DNA from: Candidatus Omnitrophota bacterium | GTDB taxonomy: Bacteria; Omnitrophota; Gorgyraeia; Gygaellales; Profunditerraquicolaceae | Length of the DNA stretch: 39,101 bases | Reading direction: 5' to 3' | NCBI GenBank assembly: GCA_016214325.1 | Contig: JACROS010000080.1 | Location: 1 to 39,101 of the forward strand | In this document: in pieces, positions 22,343 to 38,038 of the stretch | Layout: each line of letters begins with the position of its first letter | Numbering within the stretch: position 1 is the stretch's first letter | The notes under the pieces: model-generated | The model's input: only the letters and a program-made list of their open reading frames with translations | Told to the model about the DNA's origin: nothing | Database searches by the model: none | Program-made: the position numbers and the translations under genes

Positions 22343-23083
22343 TTAGTTGGCCAGGGTAAGGACAAAAACAACATTGGCACCTGCTTCTTTTAGGCAGCGG
22401 CTTGCTTCAGATGATGTTGCTCCTGAAGTTAAAACATCATCTATCAACATTATGTTTCTGCCTTTAAGATTCCTTTTTCCTGTCAGAGAAAAGCATCCTT
22501 TTACATTGTTAATTCTTTTGTCGTGGTCTAGCTCTGTTTGCGTGTTTGTGAATCGTGCGCGGTAAATAGCGTCGGGCAAAATGTCTTTATTAAACTCAGT
22601 AGCTATATGTTTACTTAAAAGATCTGCCTGGTTAAATTCTCTTTCGCGTAGTCTTGTTTGGTGAAGAGGGATAGGGATGATAAAATCAATGTATTCAATT
22701 GGAAGCCGGTATTCTTTAATAAAATTAATCATTAGTTTACTAAGTTCTCCGGCAAGGTATTCTTTGTTTTTATATTTGAACTCATGAATTAATTCTTTAA
22801 TCGTGCCGGTGTAAGTGCACGGGCTAAGTGCACGGTCAAAATGAAATATTTTTCTCTGGCACTGGCTGCAAGTATTCTTGGAGAACCCCCTTTTATCTAA
22901 TTGCCTTCCGCAGCTAAGACAAAAAGGAGGGAGATTAACCTTAATGTCGTTGCGGCAATTACTGCAAATAAAATCACTCATTGCCTTGGCTTTTGTTTCT
23001 TTGGTTGTAATCTTTGTTTTGCAGGCAAGGCAGGTTTTAGGATAGATTAAATCCGTTAAACCAGTGATAATATTGCGCAGCAT
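22343..23083 (-). CDS. comF: ComF family protein (double zinc ribbon + phosphoribosyltransferase fold)
   Basis: Four CxxC pairs, PIPLH..R..EREFNQ, LIDDVLTSGAT. Confidence 0.92.
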   Translation of the reverse strand: MLRNIITGLTDLIYPKTCLACKTKITTKETKAKAMSDFICSNCRNDIKVNLPPFCLSCGRQLDKRGFSKNTCSQCQRKIFHFDRALSPCTYTGTIKELIHEFKYKNKEYLAGELSKLMINFIKEYRLPIEYIDFIIPIPLHQTRLREREFNQADLLSKHIATEFNKDILPDAIYRARFTNTQTELDHDKRINNVKGCFSLTGKRNLKGRNIMLIDDVLTSGATSSEASRCLKEAGANVVFVLTLAN

Positions 23084-23218: not shown

Positions 23219-23260
23219 AAACAATTAATTATTAATTTGCATAGAACCGGGGTGGAAACT

Positions 23261-23470
23261 ATGGAAAAAGATAAGTTTCTTACGGTTGACGAGCTTTGTA
23301 AATACATCAAGATTCCCAAACCGACAATTTATATGTTACTTGGCAAAGGGCACGTCCCTGCGGCCAAAATCGGCAGGCAATGGAGGTTTAATAAAGACTC
23401 AATAGATGAGTGGATGAAAAAAAAGGAAGAGTATTACACCACAAGAAAAGAGCGTAGAAAGCGGCTTTAA
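23261..23470 (+). CDS. Small excisionase-like (HTH_17, MerR/BldC-like) DNA-binding protein
   Basis: FLTVDELCKYIKIPKPTIY..G.VPAAKIGRQWRF..IDEW. ATG 23261 after GGGGTGGA preferred to TTG 23237. Confidence 0.9.
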   Translation: MEKDKFLTVDELCKYIKIPKPTIYMLLGKGHVPAAKIGRQWRFNKDSIDEWMKKKEEYYTTRKERRKRL

Positions 23471-23622
23471 ACCCAAATTGTTCATTAAAAAACGTTATCG
23501 TTGATTTATATTGTAAGAAAGAAATACAGGTAAAATTTGGGTTTACCCCGCCATTCTTGATTAAATCTCTTTGAGATTTAATCAGGCGGCCCTACGGGCA
23601 GATTTTGCTGTTGCAAAATCTG
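23468..23622. repeat. Cluster of palindromes in the leader of the KS operon
   Basis: TAAACCCAAATT/AATTTGGGTTTA (23468-23479/23534-23545); 12-bp stem 23558-23584; GCCC-TAC-GGGC 23589-23599; 10-bp stem 23599-23622. Confidence 0.7.
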
Positions 23623-23706
23623 GGTTAAAAGCTTAAATGCAGGTATATTTATAAGTTCTTAAAAAGTGTAGTAGCATAGCCTAAGTAATGGCTCAACGGT
23701 GAGTAA

Positions 23707-24948
23707 ATGCATAAAAAAAGACTCGTCATTACCGGCGTAGGCGTGGTGTCTCCGATTGGAATTGGAAAGGATCAGTTCTGGCACAGTCTTTGGGAAGGCC
23801 AGGCTGGATTTAGGCCAATCAGCCTTTTTGATGCCTCAGATTTAAAGGTAGGAGTTGCGGGAGAGATTTCTGATTTTAATCCGCAAGAGATTCTGGGTAA
23901 AAAAGGCTTAATTGATCTTGACCGCGCCACAACGCTTCTGTTATCTTCTGCAAAATTCTGTCTACAAGATAGTCAAATAGAATTAACTAATATAAATTCT
24001 GTAATAACTGGTATCTGCGTCGGAACTACCTTTGGAAGCCTCAATAGCCTTTCTGAATTTGACGAGCAGTCTCTTCAGGAAGGCCCGAATTTTGTTAATG
24101 CCTCCAGATTTCCTAATACAGTAATTAATTCTCCGGCAAGCCGTTTGGCCATTCGTTATGGCGTTAAAGGGCCGAATGCTACTGTTTCTACTGGTTTTTG
24201 CGCTAGCCTTGATGCTTTGGAGTATGCAGTGGATACGATTAATTCCGGCAGGGCAGAAAGAATAATTGTCGGCGGGCTTGAAGAAATGTGCGTTCAGACC
24301 TTTCTTGGTTTTTACAGGTTGGGTTATTTGTCCGGCCTGAAGAATAATTATGAGCCGGTAAGCTGTCCTTTTGACAAGAGAAGAGATGGCATAGTTTTTT
24401 CCGAGGGTTGTGGAATTTTTATGGTTGAGGAACTTGACGCAGCGCTTGATCGTAACGCTCATATTTATGCAGAAATTCTCGGTATTGGTTCTGATTTTGA
24501 TCCATTTCGTTTACATAAGTTTAATCCTAAGGCAAGCGGCATGATTGAGGCTATGTTTTCTGCTTTAGAAGATGCCAGTATTGAGGCAGGCGAAGTGGAT
24601 TGTATTTATGCCAATGCTAATTCAACGCCAGATGGTGATTGTGTTGAGTCAAGAGCAATTAAAGAAGTTTTTCAGAAACAGGCGGATAAAATTCCAGTAA
24701 CAGCAATAAAATCAATGACAGGTGAGTCGTTTAGTGCTGGCGGAAGTTTTTCTCTTGCTGGGGCTTTGGGGACTCTTGAGACTGGGTTAATTCCTCCGAT
24801 AGTTAATCTTGAAGAGGCAGATGTAAAGTGCAGGCTTAATTTTGTATATGATTCAGCTAGAATGGATAATGTTGATAAAATAATGATTAATGCTTTTGGG
24901 CCCAACGGAGCAAATAGTGCGTTGGTTATAGGGAGATATTCTGAATAA
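23707..24948 (+). CDS. FabF-fold ketosynthase lacking the catalytic triad (chain-length-factor-like)
   Basis: VITGVGVVSPIG, PFDKRRDG..EG, FGPNGAN. TGFCAS replaces TACAS (Cys position is Phe), ANANST replaces AHGTST, GES replaces GHx. Confidence 0.85.
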   Translation: MHKKRLVITGVGVVSPIGIGKDQFWHSLWEGQAGFRPISLFDASDLKVGVAGEISDFNPQEILGKKGLIDLDRATTLLLSSAKFCLQDSQIELTNINSVITGICVGTTFGSLNSLSEFDEQSLQEGPNFVNASRFPNTVINSPASRLAIRYGVKGPNATVSTGFCASLDALEYAVDTINSGRAERIIVGGLEEMCVQTFLGFYRLGYLSGLKNNYEPVSCPFDKRRDGIVFSEGCGIFMVEELDAALDRNAHIYAEILGIGSDFDPFRLHKFNPKASGMIEAMFSALEDASIEAGEVDCIYANANSTPDGDCVESRAIKEVFQKQADKIPVTAIKSMTGESFSAGGSFSLAGALGTLETGLIPPIVNLEEADVKCRLNFVYDSARMDNVDKIMINAFGPNGANSALVIGRYSE

Positions 24949-25385
24949 TGATTCAGCTTGATATACAGCAAATAATGGAAAGTATTTCGCAGAGATTTCC
25001 GATGCTGTTTGTTGACAGGATTCTTGAGCTTGATCCGGGGAAGCAGGTTGTAGCGATTAAAAATGTAACTATGAATGAGCAGTTTTTTTCGGGGCATTTT
25101 CCGGATGCGCCAATTATGCCCGGAGCTTTAATTGTTGAGGCAATGGCGCAGGCATCAACATTTCTTTTTTATGATCCGAATAAGCCGCAGCAAAAACTAG
25201 ATTTTTTTCTGGGAGTAATTAAAGATGCTCGTTTCTTTAGGTCTGTTGTTCCTGGAGAACAAATAAAAATAGTTGCGCAGAGTATTAGGCTTGCTGAGGA
25301 CAGCGCTTATGTTAAGACGAGTGCTACTGTTGATGATGCCAAGGTTTGTGATGCAGAATTGGTTTTTGTGCGGAGAAAGAAATGA
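24948..25385 (+). CDS. fabZ: 3-hydroxyacyl-ACP dehydratase, FabZ family
   Basis: RFPMLFVDRI, KNVTMNEQFFSGHFPDAPIMPGALIVEAMAQ. Confidence 0.88.
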   Translation: MIQLDIQQIMESISQRFPMLFVDRILELDPGKQVVAIKNVTMNEQFFSGHFPDAPIMPGALIVEAMAQASTFLFYDPNKPQQKLDFFLGVIKDARFFRSVVPGEQIKIVAQSIRLAEDSAYVKTSATVDDAKVCDAELVFVRRKK

Positions 25386-26481
25386 AGAGAATTGTTGTCA
25401 CTGGGCTCGGGGCAGTTACTTCTATTGGTTTGGGGTGGAAAGATTTCTGGGTTAATCTTTTAGAGGGAAGATCGGGTATTTCTAAGGTTACAGTTTTTGA
25501 TACTTCAAAACATGTAACGCATGTTGGAGGAGAAGTTAAGAACTTTCGTCCCGAAGATTTTATCCCAAGGACTAAGATTAAATATGTGGGCAGGGCCTCG
25601 CAATTGGCGATTGCTGCGACAAGAATGGCGTTATCAGACGCAAAGCTTGAAAAAGAATTCTATACTAGGGTAAGGACATCAGTTTGTTTGGGCACAACTA
25701 TGGGTGAAATCAGGTCTGTTGAAAATGCAGATCACTCTTGGATTAATTCTAGTAAAGATAAGCACCAGATTGATCCTTTTGAAGTGTATCGTTCTGCGGT
25801 AAATAATATTCCTTCAAATGTAGCGATTGAGTTTCACTTAAAAGGAAGGAATCGTATTTTTACTACCGCTTGTGCTTCAGGAAATTATGCTATAGGTTAT
25901 GGATATGATCTTTTGTGCTCTGATAAAACGGACCTTGTTGTTGCCGGCGGCTCTGATGCTTTTTCCTGGATAGCTTTTACGGGTTTTAATAAGGTAAGCG
26001 CAACTGCTCCAGAAAGGTGCCAGCCTTTTGACAAAAATAGAAAAGGCATGATTCCTGGAGAAGGCTCGGGTGTTTTAGTGCTTGAGAGCTTGGATTCTGC
26101 GCTTTTGCGGGGTGCGCCTATTTATGCAGAAATTTTAGGTTATGGTTTAAGCTGTGACGCTAATCATATGACCAATCCAAATCCCGACGGAGTAGCTGCT
26201 TGTATGCGCAATGCCATGCTTAATGCCGGGATAGTTCAATTAAATCTATGCTGGGCCATACCATGGGAGCAGCTTCGGCAATTGAGGCAATTACCTGTTG
26301 CCTTGCTTTAAAGGACCAGGTGCTTCCTCCGACGATAAATTACGAAACTCCGGATCCTGATTGTGATATAGACTGTATTCCTAATGCCGCTAGAAAGCAA
26401 AAAGTTGAGGTTATTTTAAATAATGGTTTTGCTTTTGGCGGGAATAATGCTTGTCTTGTATTAAAAAAGTTTGTCAACTAA
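25382..26481 (+). pseudogene. fabF: Beta-ketoacyl-ACP synthase II, split by an internal deletion/frameshift near 26233 (possibly artefact)
   Basis: TTACASG (catalytic Cys), GYGLSCDANHMT in ORF 25382-26311. [13 protein letters not shown]...FAFGGNN resumes in another frame at 26233; the AHGTxT segment is absent. Confidence 0.82.
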
Positions 26482-26496
26482 GAAAAGGAGGAAGCA

Positions 26497-26748
26497 ATGT
26501 TAGAGAATTTAGAAATGGAATTTAAGGAGATGTTATCAAAATTGACCGGCCTTGAGCCAACTGAAATTGGCGATGAGGATGATTTGTTTAAAGATCTAGG
26601 GATTGATTCTTTAAAGGTTATTGAGATTGCCACTCAGATTGAACGTAATTATAAGGTAGTGGTAAAAGATAGCCAGTTGGCGCGCCTGCGCACGGTAAAA
26701 GATGCGGTAACTTTTTTAAGGGACCTTTTGGAGAAAAAGAATGCCTAA
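26497..26748 (+). CDS. Acyl carrier protein
   Basis: 83 aa, acidic, DLGIDSL phosphopantetheine site, TVKD helix; AAGGAGG RBS. Confidence 0.93.
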   Translation: MLENLEMEFKEMLSKLTGLEPTEIGDEDDLFKDLGIDSLKVIEIATQIERNYKVVVKDSQLARLRTVKDAVTFLRDLLEKKNA

Positions 26749-28042
26749 AGAAAAAAGAATTGCCATCACAGGTATAGGCCCGCTTGCTTCCATTGGCACG
26801 GGCCGAAGAGAGTTGTGGCAGAATTTGCTCGCCGGTAAAACCAATATTAAACTGGATGAAGCCTATATTGATGATGAGCTTTGGGATAAATATCATTTTC
26901 ATAAGGTTGATAATTTTGATATTTCCCGCTTTGGCCTTGATAGAGGAGCTTTGGATTGGATTAAAGACTGGAAGCAGGGCGATGAAATAAAAGATTTATT
27001 GTATCTGCTGGCTGTGATTAAGCTTGCTATTGATGATAGCGGCTTGGTGTATAATCCAGATGCTGAAAGTGATTTTGGTTTGGTTTTAGCTCATGAAAAT
27101 ATGGCGCTGATTCCGTTTTTGTTTAAGGTCAGCGAAACCGCCTATAACATTATGAGTGATAAATCAAAACAGCTTACTAAAAAGAAGTTTTACGACGAGG
27201 TTTACCGGCTTTGCCTTAAGGCAGGTTATGACGTTCAGCCGTTTATGACTTTGTTTCATGTGGCAAAAGTTTTTAATGTCAGGCAGCATTCATTATTTAT
27301 TTGTAATGCTTGTGCTTCTGGGTTGTATGCTTTAGAAACTGCTAGTGAAATGATTCATAGTAACCAGAATTCTTCGGTTATTGTTGCGGCTTCTGATTTT
27401 CCGGATATTTATAAGTATTTATGGTTTAGGGATCTGGGAATTTATTCTAAGGATGGAATCTGCAGGCCGTTTTCCAAAGACAGTAACGGCCTTGTTTTTG
27501 GCGACGGCGGCGTTGCAATTGTGATGGAAGATATGGAACACGCAAAAAAGCGCAATGCTACGATATATGCGGAATATTTAGGTGGTGGTTTTGCGTTAGA
27601 GGGGTGGCAGGTTACCGTGCCAAAAGTAGGAAGTGATTCTTATCAGAACGCGATGTTAAAGGCGTTGGAACAAAGCAAGGTAAAGAAAGAAGAAATAGAT
27701 TTACTTTGCCCGCATGGAGTGGGTTCGCATGTTATTGATTATTATGAATCAAAGGCATTTACTGAAATTTTTGGTGATAATCCTAAAAAACCGCTTATCA
27801 CTGCATTTAAGCCTTATGTTGGGCATAATTTAGGAGGCAGTGCTCTGCTTGAAGTGGCGATTTTGTTGTTATGTCTTAGTAATGATACAATTTTACCTAC
27901 CCTTAATTCCAGCAATTCTAATCCCGCCTATAAAATCCAACTGGTGCAGAAAGTAAAAAAAGCCAAACTTAAAACGGTAATGAAGGCCTGTGCTGCCTTT
28001 GCCGGTTTCAATTCCGCGGTGGTATTTGGGAAAGCGTGGTAA
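26741..28042 (+). CDS. Divergent FabF/FabB-like ketosynthase with intact triad
   Basis: IAITGIG, NACASG (Cys), PHGVGS (His), KPYVGHNLGG (His), AFAGFN; unusual N-terminal half. Confidence 0.85.
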   Translation: MPKEKRIAITGIGPLASIGTGRRELWQNLLAGKTNIKLDEAYIDDELWDKYHFHKVDNFDISRFGLDRGALDWIKDWKQGDEIKDLLYLLAVIKLAIDDSGLVYNPDAESDFGLVLAHENMALIPFLFKVSETAYNIMSDKSKQLTKKKFYDEVYRLCLKAGYDVQPFMTLFHVAKVFNVRQHSLFICNACASGLYALETASEMIHSNQNSSVIVAASDFPDIYKYLWFRDLGIYSKDGICRPFSKDSNGLVFGDGGVAIVMEDMEHAKKRNATIYAEYLGGGFALEGWQVTVPKVGSDSYQNAMLKALEQSKVKKEEIDLLCPHGVGSHVIDYYESKAFTEIFGDNPKKPLITAFKPYVGHNLGGSALLEVAILLLCLSNDTILPTLNSSNSNPAYKIQLVQKVKKAKLKTVMKACAAFAGFNSAVVFGKAW

Positions 28043-28086
28043 ATGAAGAACAATTTATTTTCCTTATAATTCTAGTGGAAATTAAA

Positions 28087-28143
28087 TTGACAATAATTGA
28101 TTTATAGGTTATAGTTTATATGTGGTATAAATTATAACCTATA
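28087..28143 (+). promoter_or_regulatory. Sigma70 promoter overlapped by an 18-bp inverted-repeat operator
   Basis: TTGACA 28087-28092, 17 bp, TATAGT 28110-28115. IR arms 28103-28120 and 28126-28143, one mismatch, 5-bp spacer. Confidence 0.75.
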
Positions 28144-28150
28144 TTAAAAT

Positions 28151-28864
28151 ATGGATAAGAAATTACGCAATATTCAATTAGAAGTTTTGAAATTATTCTC
28201 AAATAAAGCAAAGAAGTTTGCTCTTTGCGGTGGCACTGCGCTTGAGTTATGTTATTTAGATCATCGTTTTTCTGTGGATCTGGATTTTTTTTCTCCTGAA
28301 TATGATGTTAAAGAAGTAGAAAAGTTGATTGCTTTTTTTGAGGAAAGGCTTAAAGTAAAGGTTAGGTTAGAGGCTGATTTTGTCAGGGCAGGAAGAGCCA
28401 GGATTAGGTTTTATACTATTCAATTGAGAGGGCAAAAGAGGCCGTTAAAACTTGATTTTGTTGAAGACGTCTTGATAAAAAGCCCTAAAATAAAAAAAAC
28501 CAATGGCATAAGGGCTTATTGCGCCAAGAATATTTATTTCCAAAAGATTGCTGCAGTAACAGGAACACAGTTTGAATTTGACCATATAGGAAGGCGAATT
28601 GCGCAGGGCAGGCAGGCAGCAAGAGATGTTTATGATATCTACATGCTTTCAAAGAAAATAATGCCTTTGCATTTATTCTTATCTATTGTGCCCGAGCAGT
28701 TTCGCCGAGGCATGGTTCATTGGTATAGATCTTTCTCTCGCAATGCGCTGAAGCTAGAGTTACTGGACCTTGATATTTACGATAAGAATTTTGATTCGCA
28801 AGAAATGATTCAATCCGTGGAAGATGAAATAAAATTGTTTGTGAGAAAAGGAATCCTTAAATGA
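28151..28864 (+). CDS. AbiEii/AbiGii-family nucleotidyltransferase toxin
   Basis: LCGGTAL..YLDHRFSVDLDFF, LKLDF, K..A, RDVYDIY. Confidence 0.88.
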   Translation: MDKKLRNIQLEVLKLFSNKAKKFALCGGTALELCYLDHRFSVDLDFFSPEYDVKEVEKLIAFFEERLKVKVRLEADFVRAGRARIRFYTIQLRGQKRPLKLDFVEDVLIKSPKIKKTNGIRAYCAKNIYFQKIAAVTGTQFEFDHIGRRIAQGRQAARDVYDIYMLSKKIMPLHLFLSIVPEQFRRGMVHWYRSFSRNALKLELLDLDIYDKNFDSQEMIQSVEDEIKLFVRKGILK

Positions 28865-29388
28865 AGATTGAAAAGTACTTTTGGAATTTGAGCGAAGCTG
28901 CATTAAATGAAACAAAAAAGATTATTAGAAAGCCAGCTCATCCTAGATTTGCCTCGGTTATGGTTAATTTTCTTTCAAGGTGCGATAAGCCGAAGGAATT
29001 ATTTTCTATTCTTTCCAGAGAAGAATTTGTTGCAAATTGGCCTCAGATTAGAAGGTATTGGGTCAAGGTGGAGCAGCAATCCGAGCTTAGAGATTGGTGG
29101 GAAACTATCTTTGAGCAGTTGTTGGAAGAACGAATGCAAAAACAGCTTAGGCCAAAAGGCGCGGCGCCGATTTTTTTAAAGGCAATCGGAATTCAAATTA
29201 GGCAAGCAAGGTTGGATAAAAAATTGAGCCAAAAAGATTTGTCTCTTATCGTTGGTATAAAGCAACCGGAGATATCTAAAATAGAAGACGGGAAGAAGAA
29301 TATTACGATTCTTACTTTGGCCAAGTTTTGCAAGGTATTAAAAATTGATAAAATTGATTTAACGAGTAGCCTTGGTGCCGGAAGATAG
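28861..29388 (+). CDS. XRE-family HTH protein with an N-terminal extra domain (probable antitoxin/regulator)
   Basis: C-terminal IRQARLDKKLSQKDLS..VGIKQPEISKIEDGKKN.T..TL; N-terminal YFWN/Trp-rich helical region. Confidence 0.82.
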   Translation: MKIEKYFWNLSEAALNETKKIIRKPAHPRFASVMVNFLSRCDKPKELFSILSREEFVANWPQIRRYWVKVEQQSELRDWWETIFEQLLEERMQKQLRPKGAAPIFLKAIGIQIRQARLDKKLSQKDLSLIVGIKQPEISKIEDGKKNITILTLAKFCKVLKIDKIDLTSSLGAGR

Positions 29389-29415
29389 AAGTCAATTTAG
29401 AATTAGGCTATTTTC

Positions 29416-29443
29416 TTGACAAAGGTTCAGGAAAGTGTAAACT
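29416..29443 (+). promoter_or_regulatory. Putative sigma70 promoter of the second TA operon
   Basis: TTGACA 29416-29421, 16 bp, TAAACT 29438-29443. Confidence 0.5.
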
Positions 29444-29464
29444 TATATTGTATGTGAATTCACG

Positions 29465-30286
29465 ATGTTTCCGAGAGATGGAAAAATGATAAAAGAAAAT
29501 ACAAGACAATATTTGAGCCCCAGGGAAAAAGAAATCATAGCAAGGCTTGCTTATGAAAAGGTTTCGCTTGTAACAATAGAGCAGTTTGACAGGTATTTCA
29601 GGCTTCCTGGAAGAGCGAGGGAAAAGATACTTTTTAGGCTTAACAAACAGGGTATATTAAAAAAGATAAAGAAAGGCGTTTATTTTTATTCTTCTCTTGA
29701 ATCAGGGCCGGCAGGAAGCAATATAAATGAATTTCTGATCCCGCAGGTTTTTTTCCCGGAAGGCAATTATTATGTTGGTTATGCAACTATGTATAATTAT
29801 TATGGTTTTACTGACCAACTTTTTCAGGTTATGTATATTCTTAACACTTCGTTGCAAAGGGAAAGGGCTATGGGTAGGCTGCGTTTTAAAATGGTTAAAA
29901 TTTCCCCAAAGCGGATGTACGGGCTTGAAAAGATCAAGGTTAGAGATGTGGATGTTATTGTTAGTGACAAAGAGAGAACTCTTGTTGACTTAATTTATTT
30001 TCCAGAGCCCGTCGGTGGCATGGGAAAGGCGTTTGAGATATTAAGAGAACAGGTAGATAACGATAAGATAAATATTAAGAAATTGATAAAATATTCTTTG
30101 AAATTTCCGGATAGCTCGACAATTAAAAGAATCGGATATATTCTTGAGAAAGCAGGCCTGAATGATAAAGTTCTTATGCCTTTGTTGAAGGTGGCTAAAA
30201 AGACATCGTTAATTAATCTCTATCCTTCAAAATCGCGTAAGGGTAAGATAAATGGGAGATGGATGGTAATTGAAAATGCTGCATAA
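29465..30286 (+). CDS. AbiEi-family type IV antitoxin/transcriptional regulator
   Basis: wHTH-like RLNKQGILKKIKKGVY, YYGFTDQ, VSDKERTLVD, KRIGYIL, W-x-V end; alternative ATG at 29486. Confidence 0.85.
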   Translation: MFPRDGKMIKENTRQYLSPREKEIIARLAYEKVSLVTIEQFDRYFRLPGRAREKILFRLNKQGILKKIKKGVYFYSSLESGPAGSNINEFLIPQVFFPEGNYYVGYATMYNYYGFTDQLFQVMYILNTSLQRERAMGRLRFKMVKISPKRMYGLEKIKVRDVDVIVSDKERTLVDLIYFPEPVGGMGKAFEILREQVDNDKINIKKLIKYSLKFPDSSTIKRIGYILEKAGLNDKVLMPLLKVAKKTSLINLYPSKSRKGKINGRWMVIENAA

Positions 30287-31148
30287 CGATAAAGGTGAAT
30301 TTATAAAAATTCTTGAAAGGACTTCAGCGCAGACGGGGTTCCCTCTGAGGCTTCTTGAGAAGGATTACTACATTACTGTGGTACTCTCAAAAATAAATAA
30401 GTTGAGCGGAGATCTTATTTTTAAAGGCGGAACGTGTTTAAGCAAAATTTATTATTCTTATTATCGTTTAAGTGAGGATATGGATTTTACCCTTAAACTG
30501 CCTGGTAATGCAACGAGGACAATCCGCAGCAATGCCATGAGGCCTATAAAGGAATTAATGAAATCTTTTCTTAAAGAATTTGGCATGAGCATAGAAGGTT
30601 TGGAGAGGGCGGGGCACAGGGAATCAACACAGTATATATTTTTCCTGGATTATAATTCAGTTGTGCTTAGCAAAAAGGAGTCAATAAAACTTGAAATAGG
30701 CTTGAGGTTTAATCCCGTTCTTTCGTCTGTAACAAAAAAAGTGAACCATAAGTTTTTGCATCCATTTACAAAAGAACCGCTTTTTGATGCTGGTTCTGTA
30801 AGTTGCCTTGCGGCAAAAGAGCTTGTCGCAGAGAAGTTGAGGGCTGCTGCGACGAGAGAAACAATTGCAGCCAGGGATTTCTATGATTTGGGTTATTTAT
30901 TAAAAGAAAAATTTGATTTTAAGGATAAAGTGTTTCTTTCGCTTTTTAAGAAAAAACTGGAAGAAGACAACTTTTCTCCTGATTTGGCAAAATACAAGGT
31001 TAATCTAGGCAGGACTGATAAGGAAATAGATGAAATGAAATCAAGGGTTGGGGATGAGTTGCTTTCTGTGCTGACCACTGATGAGCAGAAATCATTTGAT
31101 ATGCAGAAGATTTTGGATAAATTGAACAATGCGTTTGGCAACAAATAA
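30276..31148 (+). CDS. AbiEii-family nucleotidyltransferase toxin
   Basis: LLEKDYY, FKGGTCLSK.Y..YYRLSEDMDF, IKLEI, EKLRAA, RDFYDL; overlaps the antitoxin stop. Confidence 0.9.
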   Translation: MLHNDKGEFIKILERTSAQTGFPLRLLEKDYYITVVLSKINKLSGDLIFKGGTCLSKIYYSYYRLSEDMDFTLKLPGNATRTIRSNAMRPIKELMKSFLKEFGMSIEGLERAGHRESTQYIFFLDYNSVVLSKKESIKLEIGLRFNPVLSSVTKKVNHKFLHPFTKEPLFDAGSVSCLAAKELVAEKLRAAATRETIAARDFYDLGYLLKEKFDFKDKVFLSLFKKKLEEDNFSPDLAKYKVNLGRTDKEIDEMKSRVGDELLSVLTTDEQKSFDMQKILDKLNNAFGNK

Positions 31149-31172
31149 CAGTTTTGACTTATTTCTTATAAA

Positions 31173-32579
31173 ATGGAAAAATACGATTACGACGCGATAA
31201 TTATTGGAGCAGGGATTGGAGGGCTTGTCTGCGGATGTTATTTGGCCAAGGCCGGCCTTAAGACGCTGATTGTGGAAAAAAACGCTCAGCCCGGCGGCTA
31301 CTGCACCTCTTTTACTCGCAACGGTTTTAAGTTTGATGCTTGTGTGCATTTTATTGGAAGTATGAGAGAGGGTGGAATAATAAAGAAGATTATAGGTAAT
31401 TTGGGTTTACAAAACGACATTTCAATTTTGAGAAATGATCCTTCTGATACAGTTTTTACCAAAGATTACAAGTTTTCGTTTTGGGAAAATATAGAAAAAA
31501 CAGTCAGCGAGCTTCAGTCCTGTTTTCCTTCTGAGAAAAAGTCTATTAAAGAATTTTTTAATTATATTTTAAAGATAGAAGGCTATGATTTTCTAGGTTT
31601 ACGTTGTAAAACGCTTCAGGATGTTTTTAGCAGTTTTTTTGTTGATAGACGATTGATGGCATTATTAGGATTTCCAATTCTAGGAAACTCTGGTCTTCCT
31701 CCTAGCCGAGTGTCTGCTATAAAGGCAATGACTTTATATAAAGAATTTATGGTTGATGGTGGTTATTATATGCCTAATGGTGTTCAGGTTCTACCGGAGG
31801 CGTTGGTGAAGAAAATCGTTGGATACGGTGGCACTGTTTTGTTTAATTCTCCAGTTAAGAAAATAATTGTTCGTAACGACAAAGCTGAAGGGGTAATTAC
31901 AAAACAAGGCACACAGTTTAGTTCTCGCTATGTTGTTTCAAATGCTGATACCCGACATACATTTTTTGACTTAATTGATCCTGATAATGCTCCAAAATTG
32001 TTGCAGAAGGCTTTGGTTGATTTGGAGCCATCTTTATCAATGTTCGCTTTGTATTTGGGAGTAAATGGCGAATTAACTAATTTCCCGCCTCATACAAATA
32101 TTTGGTATCTTAATGGCTATGATTTAGAAGATTATTATCGCTATAATCTTAAGGGTGATATAGAGGATATTAAATGGCTTTTAGCGTATTATAATCCTCA
32201 AGGTAAAACGATTCTTTGTTTTTTGAATGTCCCCTATGTTAATAAAAATTATTGGAAGGTTAATAGGATGAGAATTGAAGAACTTTTACTTAAGAAGATT
32301 GAAGAAGTTGTGCCTGGGACATTAAAGCATATTTGTTTCAAGAATAACGCAACTCCAGATACAATGTTGCGCTGGACTTCTAATTATCAAGGAGCTGCTT
32401 ATGGCTGGGCTGGGACTGTTGATCAATTCTCGGTCAGTGGCCTTTCTCAAATTACGCCAATAAAGAATTTATTTCTTACTGGTCATTGGACAACTTTGGT
32501 TCAGGGTGTTTCTGGTGTTATCTATTTAGGAGAGGTTACAGCAAAAACTATTTTGCGAGTAAAAGAGAAAAGACAATGA
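31173..32579 (+). CDS. Phytoene desaturase (CrtI)/RetSat-like FAD-dependent oxidoreductase
   Basis: IIGAGIGGL, EKN..PGGYCTSF.R.GF.FD, TP.T..R.T.N..GA.YGW, TPIKNLFLTGHW. Confidence 0.88.
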   Translation: MEKYDYDAIIIGAGIGGLVCGCYLAKAGLKTLIVEKNAQPGGYCTSFTRNGFKFDACVHFIGSMREGGIIKKIIGNLGLQNDISILRNDPSDTVFTKDYKFSFWENIEKTVSELQSCFPSEKKSIKEFFNYILKIEGYDFLGLRCKTLQDVFSSFFVDRRLMALLGFPILGNSGLPPSRVSAIKAMTLYKEFMVDGGYYMPNGVQVLPEALVKKIVGYGGTVLFNSPVKKIIVRNDKAEGVITKQGTQFSSRYVVSNADTRHTFFDLIDPDNAPKLLQKALVDLEPSLSMFALYLGVNGELTNFPPHTNIWYLNGYDLEDYYRYNLKGDIEDIKWLLAYYNPQGKTILCFLNVPYVNKNYWKVNRMRIEELLLKKIEEVVPGTLKHICFKNNATPDTMLRWTSNYQGAAYGWAGTVDQFSVSGLSQITPIKNLFLTGHWTTLVQGVSGVIYLGEVTAKTILRVKEKRQ

Positions 32580-34681
32580 ATATAGTAATATTGATTTCCG
32601 GTATTTTTATATCTTCTACTTCCATTGTTCTTATGGCATTGTTAAGAATTTATGGTAGAAATAAGTTACATACAATTTGGTTTATGACTAATCTCGTTAT
32701 ATTTGTTTGGGGATTAGGCTGTTTTTTTATTGGGAAGTCATCGTCTATAGAAGAGGCTCGTTTTTGGTGGGGAGTAGCAGTTGCTGCAGGTGTATTTATT
32801 GCTCCTTGTTTTTATCAAACTACTTATATTTTTGCTGGAGTTAAACAGCCAAAACGCTTAATAATCTCCTATCTGCAGGCTTCTTTGTTCGCGATATTGG
32901 CACTCTTTACAGAAGTAACTTTAAATAAATATAGGATTTTGTTTGGGAATGTTTATTATCCTACGGGTAATCTAATGTTTTTCTTAATGATTATTTGTTG
33001 GGTTATTGTTATATTCTTAGGCACTAAAGTACTCTTTGATTTGTTAAAAAGATCAACTGGAAAACAACATTTGCAGACGTGGTATTTACTAATTGCTTTT
33101 CTTAGTGGATTTGTTGGTGGTGGAGCTACGTTGCTTCCAGCTTTTGACCTTCCGTATTCTTTTGTTTATCCCTTCGGCAACTTCGGCGTTGCAATATATG
33201 CGATTATCGGTACTTATGCTGTTTTAAGATATCAACTTCTAGACCTAAATGTCGCCTTTACGCGAGCTGGGATATTTGGGGTTGTTTATGCTTTAGTTTT
33301 GGGAGTACCTTTCTGGCTTGGTTATAAATATAATAAGTGGCAGTATTCGACGTGGTTTATGTTGGTTTTGGCTACCTCTGGCCCGTTCATCTATAGCTAC
33401 TTGCGCAGGCATGCAGAGAATATAATCCTTAGAGATCAGCGAAGATACCAGAAGGCATTGCGCGAGCTTGCTGAGACCATGACTCATATTCGCTCCTTGG
33501 ATGCATTAATCCAGATTATCACCACTACTATGGTTAATGCAGTTAAAGTGAATTTTGCCGCAATGTATGTTAAGGAAGAGGAGAGCAATTCTTATGTTTT
33601 AAAAAGTTGTAATCCTCAATCTGTGCAGGATAAATTTCCGGAAAATTTAGCTTTTGATTCTTCGGTTGTAAAATTTATTTTAGCTGAACAGCGCCTGATA
33701 ACTTGTGATGAGATAAAGAATAAGCCGGAAATTCCCTTAGAATGCGGTTTAGTGATTCCTTGTTTTATGGAAAATGACCTTTTGGCATTTATTGCCTTAG
33801 GGACAAAACCAAACAGCCAGATGTTTACCACCGACGATATCTTGGTTTTTGAAACCGTGTCTTATTCAGCGAGTATTGCTATTGAGAATTGCCGTTTTTG
33901 GCGCGAGATTGAAGATAAGCAAAGAAAGGCTCGTCTTCAGGAGATGGATACGTATTCATATTCTCTGGCGCATGAAATTGATAATCCAGTGCATATAATT
34001 CTTAACGAAACCACTTTAATTAAAGACTATCTTTTGAAAAATATCACTAATCCTCAGGAATACAAAGAAGCAGAGAGTGCTTGTGGTTTTACTATTGAAG
34101 CTGCTCGAAGAGTAGCGGGAATGGTTAAGGCAATCCGCGATTTTGGCTCGCCGGTAACCGGCAAGGCTTTGGCTTTAAAAATTGAAGATGTGGTAGAGAG
34201 TTTTTTTAAACTTTATTATCCGCAATTTAAGGATAAGGCGATTGTATTTGAGAAAATCTTTTTTGGAGATCTAGGTTTTATTCGAGGGATAAAGCCTGAA
34301 TTAATGCAGGTGTTGGTTATCTTGGCGAATAATTCAATTCACGCTATGCGCGAGTCTGAAATAAAGAAAATTACACTTAAGGTTGAGCCGGTTAACCATG
34401 ACAGGATAAGAATTGTTTTCTCAGATACAGGATACGGAATTAAAAAAGAAAATCTAGAAATTATATTCTTGCCTTTTACTACTACCAAAGCTTCAAGTGA
34501 AGGCACAGGTATGGGCCTTTATAATGCCAAGAAGATTATTGAGCGCCATAACGGAAAAATATTTGCTCAATCAGAAGGAAAAGGCCAGGGCGCTTGTTTT
34601 GTAATTGAGCTTCCCAAAGCTCTGGATGTTACTGAGGATGAGTTTTTAAAAGAGGGCCAGAAAGAAAAGCGGTTAATTTAA
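32576..34681 (+). CDS. Sensor histidine kinase: multi-TM (HisKA_7TM-like) + GAF-like + HisKA + HATPase_c
   Basis: Hydrophobic N-terminal ~270 aa, H-box LAHEIDNP, N-box LANNSIHA, DTGYGI, PFTTTK, GTGMGL. Start moved to ATG 32576 (ATGA overlap). Confidence 0.92.
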   Translation: MNIVILISGIFISSTSIVLMALLRIYGRNKLHTIWFMTNLVIFVWGLGCFFIGKSSSIEEARFWWGVAVAAGVFIAPCFYQTTYIFAGVKQPKRLIISYLQASLFAILALFTEVTLNKYRILFGNVYYPTGNLMFFLMIICWVIVIFLGTKVLFDLLKRSTGKQHLQTWYLLIAFLSGFVGGGATLLPAFDLPYSFVYPFGNFGVAIYAIIGTYAVLRYQLLDLNVAFTRAGIFGVVYALVLGVPFWLGYKYNKWQYSTWFMLVLATSGPFIYSYLRRHAENIILRDQRRYQKALRELAETMTHIRSLDALIQIITTTMVNAVKVNFAAMYVKEEESNSYVLKSCNPQSVQDKFPENLAFDSSVVKFILAEQRLITCDEIKNKPEIPLECGLVIPCFMENDLLAFIALGTKPNSQMFTTDDILVFETVSYSASIAIENCRFWREIEDKQRKARLQEMDTYSYSLAHEIDNPVHIILNETTLIKDYLLKNITNPQEYKEAESACGFTIEAARRVAGMVKAIRDFGSPVTGKALALKIEDVVESFFKLYYPQFKDKAIVFEKIFFGDLGFIRGIKPELMQVLVILANNSIHAMRESEIKKITLKVEPVNHDRIRIVFSDTGYGIKKENLEIIFLPFTTTKASSEGTGMGLYNAKKIIERHNGKIFAQSEGKGQGACFVIELPKALDVTEDEFLKEGQKEKRLI

Positions 34682-34695
34682 TCGGAGGTAACAAG

Positions 34696-35088
34696 ATGAG
34701 TGATGCACCTTTAAAATTACTAGTGGTCGATGATGAAGAAGGTATAGTTGATTTTACTACAAGGATATATACTCGTAAGGGTTTTATTACATTTGGCGCT
34801 ACCGACGGGATAAAGGCAGTGGAAATATTTGAGAAAGAAAGACCTGGCATCAGCTTAATTGATGTGCACATGCCTTATTCGCCGATTGATGGCATTGAAA
34901 CTTTAAAGCGGATTAAGAATATTGATAAGAACGCCATTTGTATTATGGTTACGCGTATTACCGAGCAGGATACAGTGGCGGTTGCAAAAGAATTTGGCGC
35001 CAATGCTTATGTGCTCAAGCCTCTTGAGATGGAAGATTTGGATAAAGTAATCGCTGATGTTTTGAAAAAGGCCGAGGAGGCCAAATAA
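34696..35088 (+). CDS. Single-domain response regulator receiver
   Basis: LLVVDDE, phosphoacceptor LIDVHMP, MVT, YVLKP; no output domain; GGAGGT RBS. Confidence 0.93.
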   Translation: MSDAPLKLLVVDDEEGIVDFTTRIYTRKGFITFGATDGIKAVEIFEKERPGISLIDVHMPYSPIDGIETLKRIKNIDKNAICIMVTRITEQDTVAVAKEFGANAYVLKPLEMEDLDKVIADVLKKAEEAK

Positions 35089-35883
35089 ATGGCCAATCCT
35101 CTTCCTAATGAAAAAGAGCTTTATAAGAAAATCTATAGAGAGCGTATTTCTATGGATCCGCAAGTATGGGATCTTTTGTATAATCGGGTTGGTGATGACA
35201 TTACTACAATTAATTTATTGTGCCAACTGCATCTTTGTGATTGCCAGCCGATTCCGGTGCAGGAGGCAAGAAAGATTCTTACCTACACTCGGCATATAAA
35301 AGAATTATTGTCGCATATTACTAATATCTCCGACGATAATCAAAAAACTTTTCCTGTATTTGTAGGAACGGTGCCTTTGCATTCAATTTTGCGGGAGATG
35401 TTTACCCATTATATAGGAAATGATATTTATATGATTAATCTAATAGTAGAAGATGCCACTGATCCTATGCAGCCTGAGCCGCTTTCTGTTGCCTCAACCC
35501 AGAAAATTCTCAATCATACTCGTAGTATACGTGATTTTATGGATAAGCTCAGGCAGGCTACAATGCCCGGAGGAGTCCGGGTTACTGAAGATGATGAGCA
35601 GGAAACAAAAGATAAACCTAGCCTTGAGCTGGAGCTAACAAAGGAATCTGTTTTTGCGCGGGTTCGTAAGCTTTTGGCGCATGAATTTAATATGTCTGAA
35701 GAAAATATTCAGCTAGAGACACATTTTGCAAATGATTTGCAGCTTGATTCAGTTGATGCTATCCGTGTTGTAATGCTTCTTGAAGAAGGTTTTGGTTTTG
35801 AAATCCCCGACGATGATTATGAAGGAGTTGTGACAGTTGGCCAAGCTGTGGATTATGTATTAAAAAGATTAAAGGGTAACTAA
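35089..35883 (+). CDS. Fusion of two helical DHp-like repeats with a C-terminal acyl carrier domain
   Basis: Repeats at aa 22-77 and 97-154, acidic linker, then ACP fold (DLQLDSVD..VM.LEE.FGFEIPD...TVGQAVDY, Ser221). Confidence 0.8.
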   Translation: MANPLPNEKELYKKIYRERISMDPQVWDLLYNRVGDDITTINLLCQLHLCDCQPIPVQEARKILTYTRHIKELLSHITNISDDNQKTFPVFVGTVPLHSILREMFTHYIGNDIYMINLIVEDATDPMQPEPLSVASTQKILNHTRSIRDFMDKLRQATMPGGVRVTEDDEQETKDKPSLELELTKESVFARVRKLLAHEFNMSEENIQLETHFANDLQLDSVDAIRVVMLLEEGFGFEIPDDDYEGVVTVGQAVDYVLKRLKGN

Positions 35884-35907: not shown

Positions 35908-36549
35908 ATGGAAAAAGAAAATTTAGCCAGCTTAAAACAAAAGTTGCACGCGCTTTTAAATAAAGAAGCGCTAAAAAGAGGAAAATTTATTTTATCAAGC
36001 GGTAAAGAGAGTAATTATTATCTTGATGGAAGAGTGATTACTTTAACTCCGGAAGGCGCGTATTTGGTTGGGAGTATTATTTTAGAAATGACTAATCAGG
36101 ATAAGCTGGATGCAATTGGCGGCCCGACATTAGGAGCAGATCCGATTGTAGGAGCAGTTGCTTGTTTGGCTCATCTTAAAAATATTCCCATTAAAACATT
36201 TATCGTGCGTAAAGCTGCCAAGGAGCATGGTACTCAGCGCCAAGTTGAAGGGCCGGCATTAAAAGAAAAAGCCCGCGTAGTTTTGGTTGATGATGTGGCA
36301 ACGACGGGTAAAGCGCTTATCGAGGCTAAGCAGGCGCTTGATAAAATTGGGGTTATTGCTGAGAAAGCAATTGTAATTGTTGACTGCAATGAGGGCGGGG
36401 CAGAAAATTTAGCCAAAGTCGGCCTTAAATTAGAATCAATCTCTCGTCATTGTCAGGATCGTGATAAGCCAAGTTCGTCATTGCGAGGAGCGCGAAGCGC
36501 GACGAAGCAATCTCTTTTATGTCTGAACATCAAAGTTACGTCTACTTAA
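35908..36549 (+). CDS. pyrE: Orotate phosphoribosyltransferase; native C-terminus replaced by read-through into REP-like DNA
   Basis: G.FILSSGKESNYYLD, GGPTLGADP, VRK..KEHG, VDDVATTG; family-like sequence ends at LESI (~36441). Confidence 0.92.
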   Translation: MEKENLASLKQKLHALLNKEALKRGKFILSSGKESNYYLDGRVITLTPEGAYLVGSIILEMTNQDKLDAIGGPTLGADPIVGAVACLAHLKNIPIKTFIVRKAAKEHGTQRQVEGPALKEKARVVLVDDVATTGKALIEAKQALDKIGVIAEKAIVIVDCNEGGAENLAKVGLKLESISRHCQDRDKPSSSLRGARSATKQSLLCLNIKVTST

Positions 36550-36877: not shown

Positions 36878-38038
36878 ATGACTATTGTTAAAAAGATTAT
36901 TGTTATTGGAGGTGGGCCGGCAGGGATGATGGCTGCAATTCGCGCCGGCCAACTGCACCAGCAAGTTGTTCTTCTTGAGAAAAATGCTGGTTTAGGAAAG
37001 AAGCTTCTTTTAAGCGGAAAGGGTAGATGCAATTTAACTAATGCCTGTAGTCTTGAGGAGTTTTTGGCGCGTTTTTCTAAAAACGGGCAGTTTTTAAGGG
37101 ATGCTTTTAAGAAATTCTTCAACCAGGACTTGATGAATTTCTTTGAAGAAAGAGGCTTGCCTGTAAAAGTAGAAAGGCAAATGCGGGTGTTTCCCGTATC
37201 GGACAGATCAGCTAGTGTTCTTGAGGTTCTGGAAAAAGAATTAATTAAGAATAAAGTGGAGATAATTTTTAAGGCTAAAATAAAGAACTTATCTATTGTA
37301 GACAATAAGGTTAGGGGTTTGTATTTGGCTGGGGATGAGTTTATCTTGGCTGATAGAATAATTATTGCTACCGGAGGGATTTCTTTTGCGATTACCGGGT
37401 CTACGGGTGATGGTTTTGAATTTGCGCGTAAACTTGGGCATGCGGTTACAGCGCTTGCTCCGGGAAATAGAGAGATTGTTTCTGAAATCGGAGAATTGTT
37501 GTTTACTTTTTTTGGGATTTCCGGCCCGTTGGTTTTAACTTTAAGCGGCAAGATAGTTAATTGGTTAAATGAAAATAAAAAAGTTTATGCCCAGATAGAT
37601 TTAAAGCCTGGATTATCAAAAGAGCAATTGAATAATCGTTTATTGCGTGAATTTAGCGCGAATCCGAGGAAAAATATAAAGAATGTGTTAAAAGGATTGC
37701 TGCCCTTAAGGCTTGTGGATGTTTTTCTTGAAATTGCAAAGATTAATCCTGAGATCAGGGTAAATCAAATTAGCCGGCAGGCGCGCGAAGGAATAGTTGA
37801 TCTTTTAAAAGCTTTTCGGCTTGATATTGCAGGTTCGCTTCCTCTTGAGGAGGCAATGGTTACGCAAGGAGGAGTTTCTTTAAAAGAAATAAATCCGCGC
37901 ACCATGGAATCTCGCAAAATAAAAGGATTATATTTTGCCGGCGAGATGATTGATGTGGATGCTGATACTGGCGGGTTTAATTTGCAGGCGGCATTTTCTA
38001 CTGGTTATTTAGCAGGAGAAAGTGCTGCATTATCATGA
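36878..38038 (+). CDS. HI0933/BaiN/YhiN-family flavoprotein with an apparent in-frame internal deletion near 37465
   Basis: GGGPAGMMAA, GKKLLLSGKGRCNLTN, ATGG, GELLFT..GISGP, VTQGGV, GEMIDVDADTGGFNLQAAFSTG. Confidence 0.92.
   Translation: MTIVKKIIVIGGGPAGMMAAIRAGQLHQQVVLLEKNAGLGKKLLLSGKGRCNLTNACSLEEFLARFSKNGQFLRDAFKKFFNQDLMNFFEERGLPVKVERQMRVFPVSDRSASVLEVLEKELIKNKVEIIFKAKIKNLSIVDNKVRGLYLAGDEFILADRIIIATGGISFAITGSTGDGFEFARKLGHAVTALAPGNREIVSEIGELLFTFFGISGPLVLTLSGKIVNWLNENKKVYAQIDLKPGLSKEQLNNRLLREFSANPRKNIKNVLKGLLPLRLVDVFLEIAKINPEIRVNQISRQAREGIVDLLKAFRLDIAGSLPLEEAMVTQGGVSLKEINPRTMESRKIKGLYFAGEMIDVDADTGGFNLQAAFSTGYLAGESAALS

Follow-up and report, generated by a model that had tools for sequence, protein, structure and literature searches.

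An operon-like unit that may couple synthesis of a specialised acyl lipid to its own membrane kinase in an Omnitrophota genome

Genes of the unit

The 39,101-nucleotide stretch analysed here (the window; contig JACROS010000080.1, positions 1 to 39,101, of the Candidatus Omnitrophota assembly GCA_016214325.1) carries 14 plus-strand genes at 23237-35883, with small gaps or overlaps between them. The unit looks like one copy of a conserved and horizontally mobile operon family, in which a type II fatty acid synthase/polyketide synthase (FAS/PKS)-like pathway is paired with a membrane sensor pathway of its own. The window is contig C57 of a metagenome-assembled genome (MAG) of 1.48 Mb that is 84% complete. 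We call this genome G000 and its sister genome G001; L-numbers denote fetched related loci, and X-numbers denote public runs. The original prediction had read the unit as an island in which an acyl chain is made, redox-tailored, and sensed. The genes it listed are all present, co-oriented on the plus strand, and closely packed, and its interpretation is partly supported. The features are as follows (KS, ketosynthase; ACP, acyl carrier protein; TM, transmembrane).

23237-23470, plus strand: HTH_17 protein (excisionase/MerR-like), a small DNA-binding protein and the first gene of the unit (Pfam HTH_17, E 3.5e-16; TIGR01764)
23707-24948, plus strand: KS1, a catalytically dead, chain-length-factor-like ketosynthase of the amxFabF-mut type (triad columns; best solved match 9s5h_C)
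24948-25385, plus strand: FabZ-like 3-hydroxyacyl-ACP dehydratase (Pfam FabA, E 7.8e-27)
25382-26481, plus strand: KS2, an active-type ketosynthase of the amxFabF2 type, split in the window into two open reading frames (ORFs), 25382-26311 and 26248-26481
26497-26748, plus strand: dedicated ACP (Pfam PP-binding, E 4.1e-15; below the NCBIfam AcpP cut-offs)
26741-28042, plus strand: KS3, a divergent ketosynthase with an intact Cys-His-His triad (alignment), the gene most tightly linked to the kinase (synteny)
28151-29388, plus strand: AbiEii-like nucleotidyltransferase and a partner with a C-terminal HTH_3, an inserted accessory pair (Pfam AbiEii, E 2.5e-19; HTH_3, E 1.4e-11)
29465-31148, plus strand: AbiEi antitoxin and AbiEii toxin, a window-specific insertion of a type IV toxin-antitoxin (TA) module (AbiEi_1, E 2.5e-9; AbiEii, E 4.7e-27)
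31173-32579, plus strand: CrtI-family FAD oxidoreductase, a candidate desaturase/isomerase that would tailor the acyl chain (Pfam Amino_oxidase, NAD_binding_8)
32576-34681 (ORF 32486-34681), plus strand: polytopic membrane histidine kinase with about 8 to 9 TM helices, GAF, and HATPase_c (Pfam HATPase_c, HisKA_7TM, GAF_3)
34696-35088, plus strand: single-domain CheY-like receiver (Pfam Response_reg, E 3e-21)
35089-35883, plus strand: xN-ACP, 264 aa, with an unnamed four-helix N-domain (xN, residues 1-160, HxxGND) and an AcpP-like ACP (residues 183-260; PP-binding at the C terminus only)
31385-33197, plus strand: replaced (hypervariable) cassette covering most of CrtI and the first ~200 kinase residues, the membrane half (blastn of G000 against G001)

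KS1 had been called a dead ketosynthase, and the alignment confirmed this in full: all three triad residues are replaced, with Phe at the Cys column and Asn and Glu at the two His columns. Its orthologues have Met or Tyr at the catalytic Cys column. The possibility that KS1 retains its catalytic Cys was rejected, because the alignment puts that Cys one column past the catalytic position. Ketosynthase affiliation was read from a bit-score ranking against solved structures, in place of a KS phylogeny. In this ranking, the best match of KS1 is 9s5h_C at 350 bits, followed by FabF structures at no more than 242 bits. The intact KS2 orthologue of G001 has 403 aa, keeps the Cys/His/His triad, and scores 481 bits against 9s5h_B, 360 bits against 6kxd_A ("Ketosynthase," the second-best solved match), and 328 bits against FabF structures.

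The break in KS2 is particular to the window sequence. Contigs from three of four public runs (X1, X2, and X4, from two studies) have 112 extra bases at 26233, which restore a single 403-codon KS2 frame, and they match the flanks of the break without differences. Run X1 is possibly the window's own source sample. The same 112 bases are present in G001. Because the run contigs and G001 carry these bases, the break most likely stems from a gap in the assembly or from a minority variant, and we rejected a KS2 pseudogene as the likely state of the organism.

The dehydratase scores 153.2 bits against TIGR01750, just below the cut-off of 155.15. Against solved structures, it reaches 112 bits with canonical FabZ and about 100 bits with 8ayb and 7qv0_A; the dedicated ACP reaches 54 bits with AcpM and 39 bits with 7qv0_D. 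Membership in the cispentacin (Amc) cluster was rejected, because AmcF, AmcE, and AmcB were far under their cut-offs and under the FabF/FabZ scores. As predicted, domain scans of the island ORFs revealed no FabG, acyltransferase, thioesterase, or exporter. The genes fabD, fabG, acpP, and fabF lie elsewhere in G000, on contig C97, and would supply the FabD and FabG functions that the island is missing.

The CrtI-like protein scores 134.7 bits against TIGR02734, below the cut-off, and matches PDB entry 4dgk at E 1.2e-20. Its stop codon is overlapped by the likely start of the kinase, the ATG at 32576. The kinase matches TIGR02916 (PrsK-like) at E 3.9e-21, also below the cut-off. As read from its sequence, it consists of hydrophobic helices joined by short loops, has no periplasmic domain, and carries the H-box SLAHEIDNP. 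The receiver has the canonical residues D12, D13, D56, and K108, which are invariant in five orthologues. There is no HD-GYP protein in the window; the lone receiver and xN-ACP stand in its place.

Linkage across relatives and the replaced cassette

A profile built from seven KS3 orthologues yielded 80 loci, 68 with a KS3 of at least 41% identity and 12 with distant homologues. The 68 loci are labelled as Omnitrophota, Nitrospirota/Thermodesulfovibrionia, Planctomycetes MAGs, an Elusimicrobiota single-cell genome, and Acidobacteria. Their usual order is HTH_17, KS1, ACP/dehydratase, KS2, an optional CrtI, KS3, an optional CrtI, kinase, and receiver. Downstream sequence of at least 3.5 kb is available at 44 loci, and at 37 of these KS3 is followed within 6 kb, on its own strand, by a kinase homologue, either immediately or after a CrtI-like gene. 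The seven loci with no kinase inside 6 kb include G001, where a 10-kb insertion has displaced it. The gap between KS3 and kinase is 250 nt or less in 22 cases, one gene long in 19, and longer in 6 (n = 47). G000 has kinase homologues at about seven places in its 1.48 Mb, so the linkage of 37 of 44 KS3 loci to a kinase is far beyond chance.

The other genes follow the same pattern. A CrtI homologue adjoins KS3 in 42 of the 68 loci, and a receiver follows the kinase in 22 of 32. Upstream of KS3, the 42 loci examined contain KS2 (36), KS1 (35), the dehydratase (33), and an ACP (30); among the 42 loci with at least 6 kb of upstream sequence, 17 have an HTH_17 homologue there in the same orientation. 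An HD-GYP protein comes after the kinase and receiver in 23 of 33 loci with enough sequence. Pfam found GAF-HD_5 proteins in L013 and L038 and REC-HD_5 fusions (REC, receiver domain) in L028 (two) and L026 (one). Neither a kinase nor a CrtI was found near any of the 12 distant KS3 homologues (Paenibacillus and others); the Paenibacillus/Brevibacillus clusters consist of KS2-KS1-KS3 with FabG and ACP, and lack both. The original prediction would have been undermined by an unlinked KS block and signalling block in relatives. We found instead that the two blocks adjoin across Omnitrophota, Nitrospirota, and other MAGs, mostly with no TA genes between them.

KS3 orthologues occur in just 7 of 41 related genomes, and G000 holds three lipid modules with their own 7TM kinase, on contigs C57, C64, and C23. 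This distribution and the three kinase-linked modules are the behaviour of accessory genes rather than of core lipid genes. The C64 module runs FabG, KS1', ACP, dehydratase, KS2', kinase, receiver, and GAF-HD-GYP. In all, seven ACP-like matches were counted in G000, where at least four ketosynthase clusters add to the housekeeping fabD-fabG-acpP-fabF (contigs C97, C64, C62, C106, C23, and C57). Among the related loci, L031 (1244-9693) has a tandem duplicate of the KS1-ACP-dehydratase-KS2 block upstream of a single KS3-CrtI-kinase unit. A second module of genome G031 has an ACP-dehydratase fusion (PP-binding and FabA; L102 14568-15254), and no ketosynthase genes stand beside its CrtI-kinase-receiver-xN-PilZ-PilZ run.

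The loci of G000 and G001 are collinear at 80 to 89% nucleotide identity, except for 31385-33197, where blastn matched only one 108-base piece. The borders of this cassette are also sharp in the proteins. The first 40 residues of CrtI are 100% identical between the two genomes, and the remainder is 9 to 68% identical (9 to 58% past about residue 80). Kinase residues 1-200 are 27 to 32% identical, whereas residues 201-701 are 88 to 100% identical. KS1, the dehydratase, KS2, the ACP, KS3, the receiver, and xN-ACP are all 85 to 100% identical. A similar trend was seen more widely: among 27 full-length kinases from the 80 loci, 11 pairs have a C-terminal part at least 70% identical, and in all 11 the membrane part is just 22 to 60% identical. 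KS3 is likewise divergent in these 11 pairs (42 to 73% identity). The replacement of the enzyme and the sensor half as one block argues that the CrtI product and the kinase sensor domain are matched to each other. The claim that the chain is "redox-tailored and sensed" thus gains indirect support from this joint replacement between sister genomes.

The original prediction placed two TA modules between the KS and signalling blocks, and both are present. Because most related loci carry no TA genes, we regard the AbiE modules as insertions. The module at 29465-31148 has the AbiEi-then-AbiEii nucleotidyltransferase order that defines AbiE type IV systems, and 29354-31168 has no nucleotide match to G001. 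The other pair has the order AbiEii first and HTH_3 protein second, unlike AbiEi-AbiEii. This pair is missing from most related loci, yet it recurs in the clusters of other genomes. It occupies the KS3|CrtI junction in G001, L033, and L084, whose KS3 proteins are 96%, 60%, and 44% identical to that of the window. An AbiEii-like gene with a small HTH partner was seen in the operon family at L033 1512-2722, L084 11381-12590, L059 14388-15583, and L014 1705-2995, and the pair sits at other operon positions in L059 and G005. A promoter-like site (28087-28115), near consensus at 11 of 12 positions, lies just upstream of the pair in the window. The promoter and terminator scan as a whole was at chance level (41 sites against 37.7 expected, and 11 against 11.3 expected).

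Giant ORFs lie beside or inside the operon at L011 7398-17400 (G001), L012 1558-9231 (G031), L071, and L086, with lengths of 2285, 2557, 1793, and 1854 codons. The one in G001 belongs to the 10-kb insertion that parts KS3 from the remaining operon. A consistent link to giant ORFs was rejected, because an ORF of at least 1200 codons lies near the cluster in just 4 of 80 loci (the G031 locus L012 is outside this set).

Both flanks of the island are housekeeping in kind: TatD, TsaE/TsaB, alanine racemase, LptF/LptG, and a ComF-like gene upstream, and a phosphoribosyltransferase (PRTase), GIY-YIG, HI0933, and Maf downstream. Genes with a phosphoribosyltransferase domain thus stand on both sides, at 22343-23083 (minus strand) and 35908-36549 (plus strand). 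The left one is the ComF-like gene, with a double zinc ribbon, and the flanks in G001 are identical in kind. The last frame, 38035-39099, is a single open frame with Maf (residues 3-186) followed by Peptidase_M48 (residues 253-347), and it runs past the window end.

The xN domain and the sensing of an acyl lipid

The window's output protein is xN-ACP. The predicted structure of xN (pLDDT 88.6 and pTM 0.83; a second model has pLDDT 86.5) forms two helical hairpins from a tandem repeat, with helices at 24-50, 57-78, 99-123, and 134-158. The motif His107-x-x-Gly-Asn-Asp is conserved in 33 diverse members (His in 31, Gly in 27, Asn in 28, and Asp in 29) and resembles the H-box of the island's own kinase. 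The top structural matches are CheA P1 domains, which are histidine phosphotransfer (Hpt) domains: 1tqg_A with Z 12.0 and an rmsd of 2.5 over 105 of 105 residues, and 3kyj_A with Z 10.8. No consistent Pfam match was found in 45 members at E up to 1. The sole hint of a known family is an Atlas cluster with HisKA in 39% of its members. Many proteins of 50 to 120 residues (P0172-P0255) match just the first or just the second xN hairpin. These matches suggest an ancestral single-hairpin, dimerising protein behind xN.

We counted 115 word-indexed xN homologues, with or without an ACP, and all the named ones are Omnitrophota; at E ≤0.001 there are 139 representative clusters. The domain is rare, with 3 of 201 sampled genomes of the phylum carrying it, and on this count we rejected xN as a general part of the operon family. 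The order CrtI-kinase-receiver-xN was found in five loci: the window, G001, contig C23 of G000, the second module of G031, and L073. The G031 copy is an xN with no ACP, placed after the receiver and before two PilZ proteins. Elsewhere, xN is fused to signalling domains; the 10 long proteins scanned comprise xN-PAS-GGDEF-HD_5 (5), xN-PAS-GGDEF-PilZ (1), xN-REC (1), and xN-PAS (3). The ACP part of the window's protein lies above two NCBIfam ACP subfamily cut-offs (73 against 66, and 72.1 against 71). Of 44 fused members, 38 retain the attachment Ser; the C23 copy is among the 6 that have lost it. Because of this loss, the ACP-like part can probably work without a prosthetic group in some fused members and is not always a carrier. 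The proposal that an ACP is wired into the phosphorelay is strengthened by the conserved gene order, the signalling fusions, and a weak complex prediction described below.

We suggest, with a probability of roughly 0.55, that the genes produce a specialised acyl lipid and that their own kinase pathway keeps watch on it. Gene content, synteny, family assignments, the replaced cassette, and the xN fusions are observed directly, whereas product, ligand, phosphotransfer, and feedback are inferred. In this scheme, the KS2/KS1 heterodimer, the FabZ-like dehydratase, the dedicated ACP, and KS3 would draw on FabD and FabG of the housekeeping set and assemble an acyl chain of an unusual, probably unsaturated kind, which the CrtI-like flavoenzyme would then tailor. 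The polytopic N-terminal half of the kinase may read the tailored lipid, or the resulting membrane state, inside the membrane, and the kinase would phosphorylate the CheY-like receiver. In most relatives the receiver would act on an HD-GYP cyclic di-GMP (c-di-GMP) phosphodiesterase. In the window's sub-lineage it would act on xN, a His-bearing four-helix domain that resembles DHp (dimerisation and histidine phosphotransfer) and Hpt domains, and the fused ACP-like domain may couple the relay to ACP-dependent enzymes.

Several observations weigh against this reading. The ketosynthases of cluster I of anaerobic ammonium-oxidising (anammox) bacteria, the closest studied relatives, belong to a pathway thought to make bulk membrane lipid. 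Three ketosynthases plus tailoring are a heavy apparatus compared with the known single-enzyme signal synthases, and the island scans found no thioesterase, acyltransferase, or transporter that could serve release or export. Fast evolution is general to membrane domains, so the 11 kinase pairs are weaker evidence than the single sharp G000/G001 case. In that case, the G001 CrtI-like gene (L016 711-2053) is in two frames, broken by a stop after 211 codons and resumed in another frame, through either a frameshift or an error in sequencing. Hpt domains carry HxxKG, which differs from the xN motif. The CheA P1 matches to xN span Z 9.8 to 12.0, and four-helix bundles commonly reach Z ~13 by chance; Foldseek against the PDB gave nothing at E ≤0.001, the best hit being 0.1. 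No terminal regulator follows xN-ACP within the window. Finally, the predicted complex of the receiver and xN scored 0.53, against 0.02 for the best of three controls, which is weak support. Of 80 solved complexes, 58 attain the mark used, as do 2 of 110 mismatched pairs, and passing scores of 0.60 or less hold just 7 of the 80 solved complexes and both passing mismatches. The runs agreed in at least 95% of contacts, with a partner pLDDT of at least 78; the alignments were author-made, so the calibration counts are approximate here.

The strongest rival refines the proposed lipid-sensing circuit into strict quorum sensing. Here the lipid would be a diffusible autoinducer. The variable CrtI-like enzyme, or KS3 in other lineages, would confer its specificity, and the co-varying membrane half of the kinase would read it, giving agr-like pherotypes. 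The replaced cassette, which covers enzyme and sensor half between conserved flanks, is what such a system would be expected to show, and several paralogous modules lie in one small genome. The output is global (HD-GYP, PilZ, and GGDEF) rather than a DNA-binding regulator of the operon, and the layout is like that of rpfF/rpfC/rpfG, cqsA/cqsS, lqsA/lqsR/lqsS, and phcBSRQ. However, the island encodes no release or export step, the sharp breakpoint is seen in just one sister pair of the lineage, and Omnitrophota are small cells that are possibly host-attached. We hold this refinement to be possible and tentative. The same degree of doubt applies to its fuller, pherotype-forming version of lipid cell-cell signalling. 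In that version, the swappable enzyme would give the acyl chain made by the KS/chain-length-factor (CLF) pair its identity, and the co-swapped kinase half would recognise that chain. The CheY-like receiver would pass the signal to xN, and the ACP would feed back on acyl-ACP enzymes, while elsewhere xN would drive c-di-GMP enzymes.

Next comes membrane homeostasis, in which the product is a specialised membrane lipid and the kinase senses a physical property of the bilayer, tuning lipid synthesis and c-di-GMP with no specific ligand. DesK-like kinases offer a comparison for such sensing. The polytopic kinase with no periplasmic domain would suit this role, KS1 and KS2 are akin to presumed ladderane membrane-lipid enzymes, and the presence of an ACP-like domain in the relay hints that acyl-ACP enzymes receive feedback. 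On the other hand, the distribution is patchy (7 of 41 relatives), three modules share one 1.48-Mb genome, and a sharp joint replacement of enzyme and sensor half is unexpected for a sensor of a bulk property, so we consider homeostasis unlikely. It is more improbable still that xN-ACP is a mere second carrier, with a helical docking domain for biosynthetic enzymes and an incidental place after the receiver. Its ACP part does pass the two subfamily cut-offs, and most fused members keep the Ser. Yet xN stands alone in the same post-receiver place in G031 and is fused elsewhere to PAS-GGDEF-HD-GYP or to receivers, and G000's second copy is among those that have lost the Ser. Least probable by far is a polyene-type product that serves as a bound cofactor or chromophore of the 7TM/GAF kinase, making it a light or redox receptor with no free ligand. 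Conjugated chains could arise from a KS/CLF pair and a dehydratase in an island that lacks an enoyl reductase, and the 7TM and GAF domains do occur in one protein. However, the runs that hold this DNA are labelled as groundwater and subsurface metagenomes, and general domain scans showed no homology to rhodopsins or bilin-binding GAF domains.

If a lipid-monitoring circuit is the correct reading, signal-receptor circuits like those of the diffusible signal factor (DSF) or agr systems would exist in Omnitrophota and Nitrospirota, two phyla with almost no cultured members, and they would be built of polyketide-like enzymes rather than the known single-enzyme synthases. The xN domain would then be a new signalling domain family, counting 139 representative clusters that no Pfam model covers. 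Outside anammox bacteria, the enzyme core linked by anammox researchers to ladderane synthesis is widespread and stands among signalling genes, which bears on the actual product of that core. The replaced cassette offers a direct experimental route to enzyme-sensor matching.

Comparison with known systems

By sequence, the KS1/KS2 pair is closest to the KS/chain-length-factor heterodimer of anammox Cluster I. That cluster (KustE3603-3608) comprises amxACP, amxFabZ, amxFabF2, amxFabF-mut, a phytoene-dehydrogenase homologue, and a B12 radical SAM protein, and two crystal structures describe the amxFabF2/amxFabF-mut heterodimer, which acts as a KS/chain-length-factor pair (10.64898/2026.05.19.726425). 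Entries 9s5h and 9s5i are probably these structures; the code 9s5h is absent from the main text of the preprint. In both systems a dead ketosynthase lies just upstream of an active one, the order in the island being KS1-dehydratase-KS2, and the island also has a FabZ-like dehydratase, an ACP, and a phytoene-dehydrogenase/CrtI homologue. The replacement of His by Asn and of His by Glu in KS1 matches the replacements tabulated for Kuste3606 and Kuste2805 (PMC2649909). The best solved matches, 9s5h_B for KS2 and 9s5h_C for KS1, stand well above FabF, with the anammox identity of 9s5h presumed. Two Kuenenia CrtI homologues are reported to have made no lycopene in Escherichia coli (PMC4790861). There are also differences. 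No radical SAM domain was found among the island ORFs scanned, and the island adds KS3, the kinase, the receiver, and xN-ACP in an Omnitrophota host. By the bit scores given above, its dehydratase and ACP come no nearer to the presumed anammox entries than to standard FabZ and AcpM.

Aryl-polyene and highly reducing type II PKS systems (Iga11/Iga12) share with the island a KS/CLF heterodimer, a dehydratase, an ACP, and a further ketosynthase. The second-best match of KS2, 6kxd, we take to be Iga11. The island differs in having no ketoreductase, second dehydratase, acyl- or glycosyltransferase, LolA-like protein, or MMPL exporter.

In the Rpf/DSF (RpfF, RpfC, and RpfG), Cqs, Lqs, and Phc systems, lipid-signal synthesis is encoded beside a membrane kinase and a receiver. 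The island likewise groups lipid-synthesis genes with those for a multi-pass membrane kinase and a receiver in a single operon, and the output in relatives is REC-HD-GYP or GAF-HD-GYP. However, its synthase is a KS/CLF set and not a crotonase, PLP enzyme, or methyltransferase (the island scans found no enoyl-CoA hydratase domain), its kinase is not a hybrid, and the window has xN-ACP instead of HD-GYP.

The xN model is like Hpt, Spo0B, and DHp domains in its four long helices, its nearly invariant His, and its place after a kinase and a lone receiver; Spo0B comes after Spo0F. Unlike them, xN has no sequence-family match, has HxxGND where Hpt domains have HxxKG, and is built as a tandem hairpin repeat.

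The hypervariable region of staphylococcal agr comprises the AgrB C terminus, AgrD, and the sensor half of AgrC. As a comparison of how the systems work, the likeness is that a block spanning a signal-modifying enzyme and the membrane half of a kinase is replaced, while the kinase core and the flanks are conserved. The differences are that the chemistry of the island is that of lipids and not peptides, and that the pattern is drawn from one sister pair and 11 looser pairs.

Literature searches found no publication on this operon arrangement or on the xN domain, no paper on Omnitrophota with ketosynthase, and no relevant paper for 9S5H. The original prediction had recognised no described cluster class in the layout. 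This view needs to be amended for the KS core, which belongs to the anammox Cluster I type, and it stands for the arrangement with signalling genes, which we found in no paper. The parts are of known kinds, and the window's own contributions are the xN-ACP output variant and the cleanly replaced cassette.

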